A stretch of DNA of 32,000 nt from NCBI GenBank assembly GCA_016933055.1, contig JAFGBS010000022.1, positions 1 to 32,000 on the forward strand, read 5' to 3'. This stretch comes from Promethearchaeota archaeon (GTDB lineage Archaea > Asgardarchaeota > Lokiarchaeia > Sigyniarchaeales > Promethearchaeaceae). Below the pieces are notes generated by a model, which was not told the origin of the DNA, made no database searches, and saw only the letters and a list, made by a program, of their open reading frames with translations. Every line of letters begins with the position of its first letter. Position 1 is the first letter of the stretch. A program made the position numbers and the translations under genes. This document shows, in pieces, positions 22,900 through 25,039 of this stretch.

Positions 22900-22932
22900 C
22901 CTCGAACTGATCCTTTGTGGATTTTTTTTAGT

Positions 22933-23214
22933 AAAAATTTATCCCGTGATACCCACGTTCGGGGAATAGGGGGTATATAGTTCTGTCAATTTGGTGTAAG
23001 CTCAGGTACATCATGCTACTACTATGTATTCGACATTTGGGGTAGTTACTCGTGCTATCTTCCCGCACCGAGGACCGACCTATTCTGCATCTGAACGGGT
23101 ATTAAATGGGTTTAAATTCGTAAATTGATTCGATTTTACGAGTTTGACGTTGTTTTATGATAGTATCATGTTAAAGGGATCAAATTTTAAATGGATAGAC
23201 CCGTATAGATGTTG
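22933..23214 (+). repeat. Copy 1 of a structured non-coding repeat (candidate ncRNA or MITE-like element)
   Basis: Collinear with 24594-24926. The last 64 nt are 63/64 identical, and upstream blocks are conserved with indels. Several stems are shared. Confidence 0.9.
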
Positions 23215-23367
23215 ATTAGATGAAAAAAAATTAGTTAAGAAGATCCACTCTCATCTATCACATTTAATTTTTTCAATACACCCTCTGTCTCTTTAAAGGG
23301 ACTTCCAGTTTACTATCCCATATCTCAAATAAATTCAAAAAATAAGTAGAAAGGGAATTTTCAGCTT

Positions 23368-24555
23368 CTACGTCCTCAGTATCATTGCAATAGTTGCTTT
23401 ACAGATTTTTGCTAAAATTTCATAATCCAGGTATTTAGCTTCATCGGATTTTGTATGATAACCATCCCATCGTAAGTATGCTGTATCAGTTAGAAATAAT
23501 GCTGGAATGTCATGCTTCCAAAATGGCGTGTGGTCTGAAAGTAGTGCTGCAGGAAATACTTTTGCAATCTTTGAGAATGACATTGGTAAAAGGAATCCAA
23601 TATAAGGTAAATCGACTGATTCTTCTTTCCCAACTTTTAAAAAATCATTATACAATTTTTTTGTGTTTTTATCCCCAATAACACAAGTGAAATTTCCTGT
23701 ATGATCCTTGAATTTTGTTTTGTGTGTTCTTAATAGGAATCGAGGAATAGGCGGAAAAGGCTGAGTATGTTTACTGTTTTTAATGATTCCAACTGTATCA
23801 TAATTTATCACTGCTGAAAATTTTAATCCTAAATCCAAGGCTTTTTCGACCCATAGAGAACTACCAATAAGGCAAGCTTCTCCGAAATGAGTTTCCGTTG
23901 AATATGGTTTATATAATTCGTAAATCCCTCTATAATAATCCAATTCCTCTTTACTCATGCTATCTTTGAATTTTTTAATGAAATCTTGGAGACCTTCATG
24001 TAACGTTCTTCCTGTGTCGCGTGCATGAATCATCATTTGTACATACGTTCGATATTGCTCAATATATTTTACCTTTGTAAATTGAAAATCTTGATTGACA
24101 ATGCTGTATTTTAAATCTAATTCTCGTAGTTTTTTCCAGAAAACGGGATGTCCCTCTTCCAAAGTGAAGAAATTCGCAATCACATGTGGTGGGTTAGGGA
24201 GCTGGATCAAAATTCGGATTACCTCTAAACAAATTGCAACAGCAGTCAAATTATCATTCGCTCCGGGACAAAACTCTACCGAATCATAGTGGGAACAAAT
24301 GCAGAATGCAGGTTGAGATTCATCTCCAATATGTGCTTCGATGTTTTCAAAAGTCTCAGGAACCCCATCTAAAATAAACCCATGCGTCACCACTCGGGCA
24401 CCATATTTAGCAAGTTCATCTCTGATATACGACGCTGCTTCATTCAGTTTATCCATGGTGTCCAATGGAAATCTTGGACCTTCTAAAATTCTTATATGCT
24501 GATAAATTCGTTCCTTATCAATTTGATCAAGTAATTCGTGAAATTTCTCCGTCAT
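23368..24555 (-). CDS. M28-family metallopeptidase
   Basis: SHYDS...GANDNLTAVA, TLEEG, NYDTVG, SDHTPFW, YHTKSD. Confidence 0.95.
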   Translation of the reverse strand: MTEKFHELLDQIDKERIYQHIRILEGPRFPLDTMDKLNEAASYIRDELAKYGARVVTHGFILDGVPETFENIEAHIGDESQPAFCICSHYDSVEFCPGANDNLTAVAICLEVIRILIQLPNPPHVIANFFTLEEGHPVFWKKLRELDLKYSIVNQDFQFTKVKYIEQYRTYVQMMIHARDTGRTLHEGLQDFIKKFKDSMSKEELDYYRGIYELYKPYSTETHFGEACLIGSSLWVEKALDLGLKFSAVINYDTVGIIKNSKHTQPFPPIPRFLLRTHKTKFKDHTGNFTCVIGDKNTKKLYNDFLKVGKEESVDLPYIGFLLPMSFSKIAKVFPAALLSDHTPFWKHDIPALFLTDTAYLRWDGYHTKSDEAKYLDYEILAKICKATIAMILRT

Positions 24556-24593
24556 ACTTGAGAAATGATTTAACCAATATAAAAATCCCTAGG

Positions 24594-24926
24594 AAAAATT
24601 TATCTCGTGATATCCAAAAATATTACGTTCGGTGAATAGGGGATATATAGTAAGAAGTTCTGTCCATTTGGAGGGAGGTTTGATTCATATTATACATATA
24701 TGTGCCTCATGCTACTACTACGCATTCGGCTTTTGACCTATCCGAGGTAGGTGTTTATTCCTACGCCCACGTTCCCGCACCAAGGACCGACCTATTTTAC
24801 ATCTATACGGGCATTAAATAGGCTTAAATTCGTAAATTGATTCCAATTTATATATTTGATGGTGTTTTATGATAGTATCATGGTAAAGGGATCAAATTTT
24901 AAATGGATAGACCCGTATAGATGTTG
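24594..24926 (+). repeat. Copy 2 of the structured non-coding repeat
   Basis: See copy 1. It carries extra hairpin-forming insertions (CATAT/ATATG at 24686-24702; ACCTA/TAGGT at 24736-24752). Confidence 0.9.
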
Positions 24927-25039
24927 TTAAGATAAAAGATGGACCCCTTAATCTTATTGAGATAAATTTTATGTATACTTATTAATGGTACTCCATGAGT
25001 AAATAAAAGAAAAAATAACTTAAATATGGGAAAAAAACT

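Follow-up and report, generated by a model that had tools for sequence, protein, structure and literature searches.

Two non-coding repeats flanking an M28 peptidase gene are probably old copies of an orphan, TA-centred MITE family of one Promethearchaeota genus

Within the window, the 32,000-nt stretch of DNA analysed here, two direct and diverged non-coding repeats are located one on each side of an M28 peptidase gene (positions 23368-24555, minus strand; Pfam PF04389), and we consider it likely that they are old copies of an orphan, TA-centred MITE family of one Promethearchaeota genus. Copy 1 (22932-23215, plus strand, 284 bp; nhmmer match to the family profile with an E value of 2.6e-71) is placed where an ArsR-type HTH gene and the peptidase gene converge with their 3′ ends, and copy 2 (24593-24927, plus strand, 335 bp; E value 1.5e-81) where the peptidase gene and a TM2/zinc-ribbon gene start divergently. 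An initial annotation had delimited the copies at 22933-23214 and 24594-24926, which agrees with these borders to within 1-2 nt, and had correctly noted that they have no ORF in common (none of at least 50 aa). The two copies are 72% identical overall, with indels, and 88% identical over the 3′ 166 nt (BLAST); a repeat finder returned six co-linear blocks, and in the pairwise alignment long identical blocks are interrupted by indels. Contigs of a second, independent metagenome are identical to the locus and span the filled site of copy 1, including its 3′ junction. The initial annotation had left the choice between a structured RNA and a non-autonomous mobile element; the latter part is borne out by about 60 copies with terminal inverted repeats, TA-containing flanks and intergenic locations, whereas the former is not.

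The source genome (3.76 Mb on 36 contigs, 91% complete) harbours a dispersed family. BLAST with copy 1 yielded 36 matches; a first profile built on 7 copies gave 58 matches and a second-round profile built on 22 copies gave 63, which together make up 15.5 kb, or 0.4% of the genome, on more than 20 contigs. Approximately 33 matches come close to full length (300-440 bp) and the others are partial; copy lengths range from 284 to 441 bp, well within the size of a MITE (<~600 bp), and conservation is highest in the 3′ half, which is often found alone. The identity between nearest neighbours ranges from 61% to 89%, with a median pairwise identity of 62%, which points to an old family, and the two window copies belong to different sub-lineages of it. 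Several copies are located at contig ends, as expected because repeats break assemblies, and the family accounts for several of the contig breaks in this assembly.

The distribution of the family is intergenic. None of the 63 copies lies inside an ORF of at least 150 aa, and only 0.1% of the element bases overlap such ORFs, compared with 81% for the genome, while many copies are found within ~200-270 bp of genes. Their orientation relative to the upstream and downstream genes is random (a 7/9/8/8 split), in line with the earlier argument against a simple cis-regulatory leader. The consensus contains stop codons in all six frames and shows no 3-nt periodicity.

In most copies, (R)TCAACATCTATTC at the start and GAATAGATGTTGA at the end form a terminal inverted repeat. 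With at most one mismatch, the terminal 13-mer occurs at 76 sites of the genome, compared with a mean of 14 (maximum 40) for shuffled patterns, and in an alignment of copy 1 with 29 other family copies pairing between the two ends reaches 75% of cells, compared with 33-45% in slid controls. These repeats had been missed in the initial annotation owing to the degenerate state of the 5′ repeat in the two window copies, in which ~14 of 23 positions match the 3′ end. Copy 1 starts with TAAAAATTTATCC (22932-22944, plus strand) instead of the family form, a variant common to 6-7 copies among the 34 aligned 5′ ends, and terminates with the 3′ repeat GTATAGATGTTGA (23203-23215, plus strand), located by a pattern scan and by 52 aligned 3′ ends. 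In copy 2, a pattern scan and the alignment place the 3′ repeat GTATAGATGTTGT, whose last base is mutated, at 24915-24927 on the plus strand. The terminal motif recurs in the interior, as GCATCTGAACGGG at 23087-23099 (plus strand) of copy 1, in a block that is conserved across the family (profile positions 182-197), and as ACATCTATACGGG at 24799-24811 (plus strand) of copy 2, where it forms a perfect 13-nt inverted repeat with 24912-24924. The 5′ terminus, this internal motif and GAATAG (profile positions 49-54) are copies of one motif, and CTATYC/GRATAG is present 3.2 times per copy compared with 0.41 times in shuffles (~8-fold over chance). The terminal repeat also seems to serve a second short element family, to judge from four source-genome sites (C17:405898, C2:341772, C35:11968 and C6:343460) that share the terminus TAATCAACATCTATCCCATATCC and have a different interior.

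The sequences immediately outside the ends have a TA-centred YTAR consensus, with a T-rich left flank that leads into Y-T-A-R and a right flank that begins with T-T-A-R and continues A-rich. Of 28 copies, 21 have TA at -3/-2 and 22-23 have it at +2/+3. Within a copy, the two flanks agree over 3 nt in 9 cases, compared with 5.6 for permuted pairings (p 0.01), and over 4 nt in 5 cases, compared with 2.0 (p 0.013). Copy 1 is bordered by a perfect TTAG/TTAG pair (22928-22931 and 23216-23219), a candidate target-site duplication, and copy 2 by CTAG (24589-24592) and TAAG (24928-24931); in three abutting copy pairs, one T/C-TA-A junction is common to both members. Taken together, the flanks fit a TA-centred YTAR target with a candidate duplication of 2-4 bp. 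Between copy 2 and the peptidase start codon (24556-24592), a TATA-like TTTTTATATT is found in minus-strand reading, and the promoter of the peptidase appears to have been spared by the insertion of copy 2.

A plausible course of events is that a transposase acting in trans recognised the inverted repeats at the two ends, (R)TCAACATCTATTC and GAATAGATGTTGA, and probably also the internal CTATYC/GRATAG copies as putative binding sites, whereupon the element would have been excised and pasted into TA-centred YTAR sites in AT-rich intergenic DNA, with 2-4 bp being duplicated. The hairpins and long-range stems of a single copy would then be by-products of inverted motif copies in DNA and not a selected RNA fold. 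One hallmark of a MITE system was not found, namely an autonomous, transposase-encoding element with matching ends. We searched the source genome with models of seven Pfam transposase families, and six of them, the TnpB zinc ribbon (PF07282), the IS630 DDE_3 (PF13358), Y1 (PF01797), DDE_Tnp_4 (PF13359), rve (PF00665) and IS110 (PF02371) domains, gave no match. The seventh, DDE_Tnp_1 (PF01609), revealed the sole transposase trace, a decayed copy at C8:3190-3495 with four in-frame stops and without matching ends; the assembly is thus nearly free of recognisable transposases. No transposase-like protein was found among the multi-copy ORFs of the source genome, and no autonomous element with the same ends was found in the 91%-complete assembly or in the genome, metagenome and viral collections, the other exact terminal repeats being solo or belonging to shorter relatives with the same terminus. 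The missing partner suggests an extinct IS lineage or one that was not assembled, and since no partner transposase is present in the assembly, this old family is probably immobile now.

Two candidates for the partner were rejected. A three-copy family of ORFs of 626-650 aa near element ends encodes alpha/beta hydrolases and lies outside the element. Two of these three paralogs have an element 3′ end 40-110 bp past the stop codon in the same relative orientation (C2:125243-125255 and C30:1178-1190), which could mean that a segmental duplication carried the repeat along or that insertion at this site is favoured. Furthermore, an exact terminal repeat at C17:633928 is followed, starting 167 nt inside it, by two adjacent ORFs of 452 and 446 aa (C17:634094-636789). 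There is no second end, the arrangement is single-copy, and the ORFs have no Pfam, NCBIfam or Atlas family, the first of them having only weak Atlas neighbours; this repeat is a solo end fragment beside ordinary genes.

Among the genomes searched, the only other one with the element is a MAG of the same genus, Promethearchaeota AMARA_1, which contains one full copy and a fragment. Two sites of the exact 14-mer bound its 507-bp copy (C145:42396-42903), which agrees with the family in its ends and TA flanks. In a comparison of 161 genomes of the class, this 14-mer occurs 22 times in the source genome and twice in the same-genus genome, and in the remaining ones at most twice and mostly 0-1 times; BLAST with a second sub-lineage gave the same range, and amplification of the element was not observed in AMARA_1. 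The 507-bp copy carries extra internal CTATCC hairpin repeats, and ~160 bp downstream of it there is a different repeat that matches C2:282698, C16:280420, C6:400682 and C13:29734 of the source genome. A 20-mer scan of genome contigs detected only AMARA_1 and two chance matches without a profile match, a 17-mer scan of viral contigs gave 6 chance matches, likewise without a profile match, and neither the metagenome-contig collection (two scans) nor the plasmid and phage collections contained any match. In the nearest genome, genes are only ~72% identical and the tested loci are not syntenic, and the surroundings of the AMARA_1 copy show no synteny with the source genome. A comparison with related genomes recovered no empty site, the M28 locus having no close ortholog in 14 relatives (best 29-35% identity). 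The peptidase gene is also missing from the same-genus genome, so it may have been acquired recently or be evolving fast.

Although copies otherwise agree at only ~62% of positions, conservation reaches 80-99% in many internal blocks, ~60% of the internal columns being conserved across the family, and even between the closest pairs the conserved columns differ at half the rate of the variable ones (0.113 compared with 0.231, p 1e-8). This halved rate is the reason for leaving a small probability to the idea that the elements arrived by transposition and were then retained to serve the host, as binding-site arrays for a DNA-binding protein or as promoter, terminator or insulator modules. We regard such co-option as unlikely, and we assign the same low weight to the wider statement that the copies were kept for a host function (a binding-site or regulatory module, or a source of small RNA) or were moved by a type of transposase absent from Pfam. 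The excess of the terminal motif, which recurs within every copy, the intergenic placement of all copies, many of them close to genes, the persistence of the family without a remaining transposase and the position of copy 2, 37 nt upstream of the M28 start codon and just outside the TATA-like sequence, are compatible with a host role. However, the rate difference is equally expected if divergence took place in master copies that had to remain transposable, followed by a uniform decay of ~5-6% after insertion. Position and orientation relative to genes are random, many copies are truncated, and the sister genome has just the one full copy and the fragment, all of which speaks against a host role.

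The reading preferred in the initial annotation, a multi-copy family of genes for a structured non-coding RNA transcribed from the plus strand, is in our assessment very unlikely. The five stems listed there (i to v) do exist in the two window copies, including T23027-A23033 in copy 1 and C24723-G24729 in copy 2 around the loop ATTCG in stem i and the 13-bp stem v of copy 2 (ACATCTATACGGG/CCCGTATAGATGT), but they did not withstand the alignment of 30 copies, in which they pair in only 58-76% of cells. For stem i, pairing reaches 64% of cells; 24 of 29 copies have C.T as the second pair, and the outer extension is present in 3 copies. The double-sided change that closes its loop had been taken as compensatory; the closing pair is C-G in 20 copies, T-G in 3 and T-A in 2, and these 2 are sister copies, so that a single event accounts for it. 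Stem ii is paired in 67% of cells, and two copies have an uncompensated change from CC to AG. Stem iii (71%) and stem v (76%) both need the same ACGGG and are mutually exclusive: the internal motif of copy 1 at 23087-23099 serves stem v as its 5′ arm and stem iii as its 3′ arm. Stem v joins the internal terminal motif (profile positions 185-197) to the 3′ terminus and shows a T-A/A-T switch at one column in 9 copies. Stem iv reaches 58%, and RNAalifold gives its bases another partner. For the 8 closest copies (368 columns), the energy from RNAalifold was -19.35 kcal/mol, and its covariation term of +0.63 counts as a penalty. When all column pairs were scanned blindly, no helix of at least 4 bp with at least 80% Watson-Crick pairing across the family emerged; once G-U pairs were admitted, short "helices" became numerous owing to the G+T-richness of the plus strand.

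The predominance of G-U among the mismatches had furthermore been read as a sign of a plus-strand RNA. It holds for stem iii (19 G-U, 4 A-C), where, however, G-U is mostly an ancestral T.G inherited by many copies; in stem ii A-C mismatches outnumber G-U (24 and 14), and in the terminal repeats of the 30 copies both types are about equally frequent (18 G-U, 21 A-C). Minimum-free-energy z-scores against dinucleotide shuffles average -1.44 on the plus and -1.57 on the minus strand (33 copies, Wilcoxon p 0.51). Copy 1 alone is plus-biased (-3.0 compared with 0.0), which explains the earlier impression of a plus-strand RNA. The family thus displays neither a covariation-supported conserved structure nor a strand-specific folding signal. 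The conserved internal blocks and the hairpin-shaped insertions in several variable regions might also suggest an RNA, but the insertions consist of the same CTATC/GATAG motif as the termini, the copies show no preferred orientation to genes, and many of them are truncated or abutting. The observation that no known RNA class is matched still stands, as Rfam searches were negative for the window copies, even at E<=10, and for 20 other copies of the family. Contigs matching the stretch were absent from two metatranscriptome runs of the source study. Across the aligned copies, what had been listed as stems is pairing between repeats of the terminal motif, the inverted repeats of the element.

Still less probable is a gene-less derivative of the IS200/IS605 type (PATE), which would move as single-stranded DNA via subterminal hairpins and whose right end may encode a TnpB omega RNA. 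Hairpins are located near both ends, the 3′ half is best conserved and often stands alone, and among the IS families of Asgard genomes IS200/IS605 is reported to be the most widespread (PMC13343696). Nevertheless, the genome-wide absence of the Y1 transposase (PF01797) and of the TnpB zinc-ribbon domain (PF07282), which the initial annotation had considered as possible neighbours of the copies, the lack of strand asymmetry in folding and the lack of an Rfam match of any kind stand against it. IS200/IS605 elements have no terminal inverted repeats and produce no target duplication, whereas the ends of the family described here are true terminal inverted repeats, and its TA-centred flanks are symmetric and show duplication-like matches. 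A local duplication of the peptidase flanks was rejected in view of the 72% identity, the different sub-lineages within a dispersed 63-member family and the TTAG/TTAG pair of copy 1's own; the same grounds and the differing outer flanks (TTAG and TAAG) exclude a composite transposon carrying the M28 gene, as the missing frame and periodicity exclude a relic of a coding sequence and the random gene orientation a cis-regulatory leader.

Small, non-coding elements with terminal inverted repeats in many dispersed copies are an ordinary kind of feature, and the main value of the present case is that it guards against a false lead, as the hairpin-rich intergenic repeats of this Asgard genome can pass for novel structured RNAs if only one window is considered. 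Archaeal MITEs have been noted (PMC13343696), MITEs are barely documented in Asgard archaea, and in the literature we found none described from this group. The MITE family presented here can be compared with three known systems. The SM families of Sulfolobus are archaeal MITEs that are mobilised in trans by resident IS elements, and they resemble the present family in being short, non-coding and multi-copy, with terminal inverted repeats, intergenic locations and a transposase encoded elsewhere. In contrast to them, a partner IS with matching ends is lacking here, and the family is confined to one Promethearchaeota genus among the genomes searched, with nearest relatives at most 89% identical. 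The TA-flanked bacterial Correia/NEMIS elements of Neisseria and the Stowaway-type MITEs, which are derived from IS630/Tc1-mariner, share with it the TA-centred sites with a possible TA duplication and the inverted-repeat ends, and single copies can form long hairpins. The TA flanks are compatible with IS630/Tc1-mariner, and no DDE_3 (IS630) transposase was found in the genome; the elements described here are 2-3 times longer (300-440 bp), have internal copies of the terminal motif, and their duplication may comprise 3-4 bp instead of 2. Tourist-type MITEs derive from IS5-family and PIF/Harbinger elements and use YTAR or TWA targets. Although DDE_Tnp_4 is absent here and DDE_Tnp_1 is represented only by the decayed fragment on contig C8 without these ends, the family resembles the IS5-family and Tourist-type elements in its YTAR or TTA flank consensus, in the perfect TTAG/TTAG pair at copy 1 and in flank matches of 3-4 nt that exceed chance.
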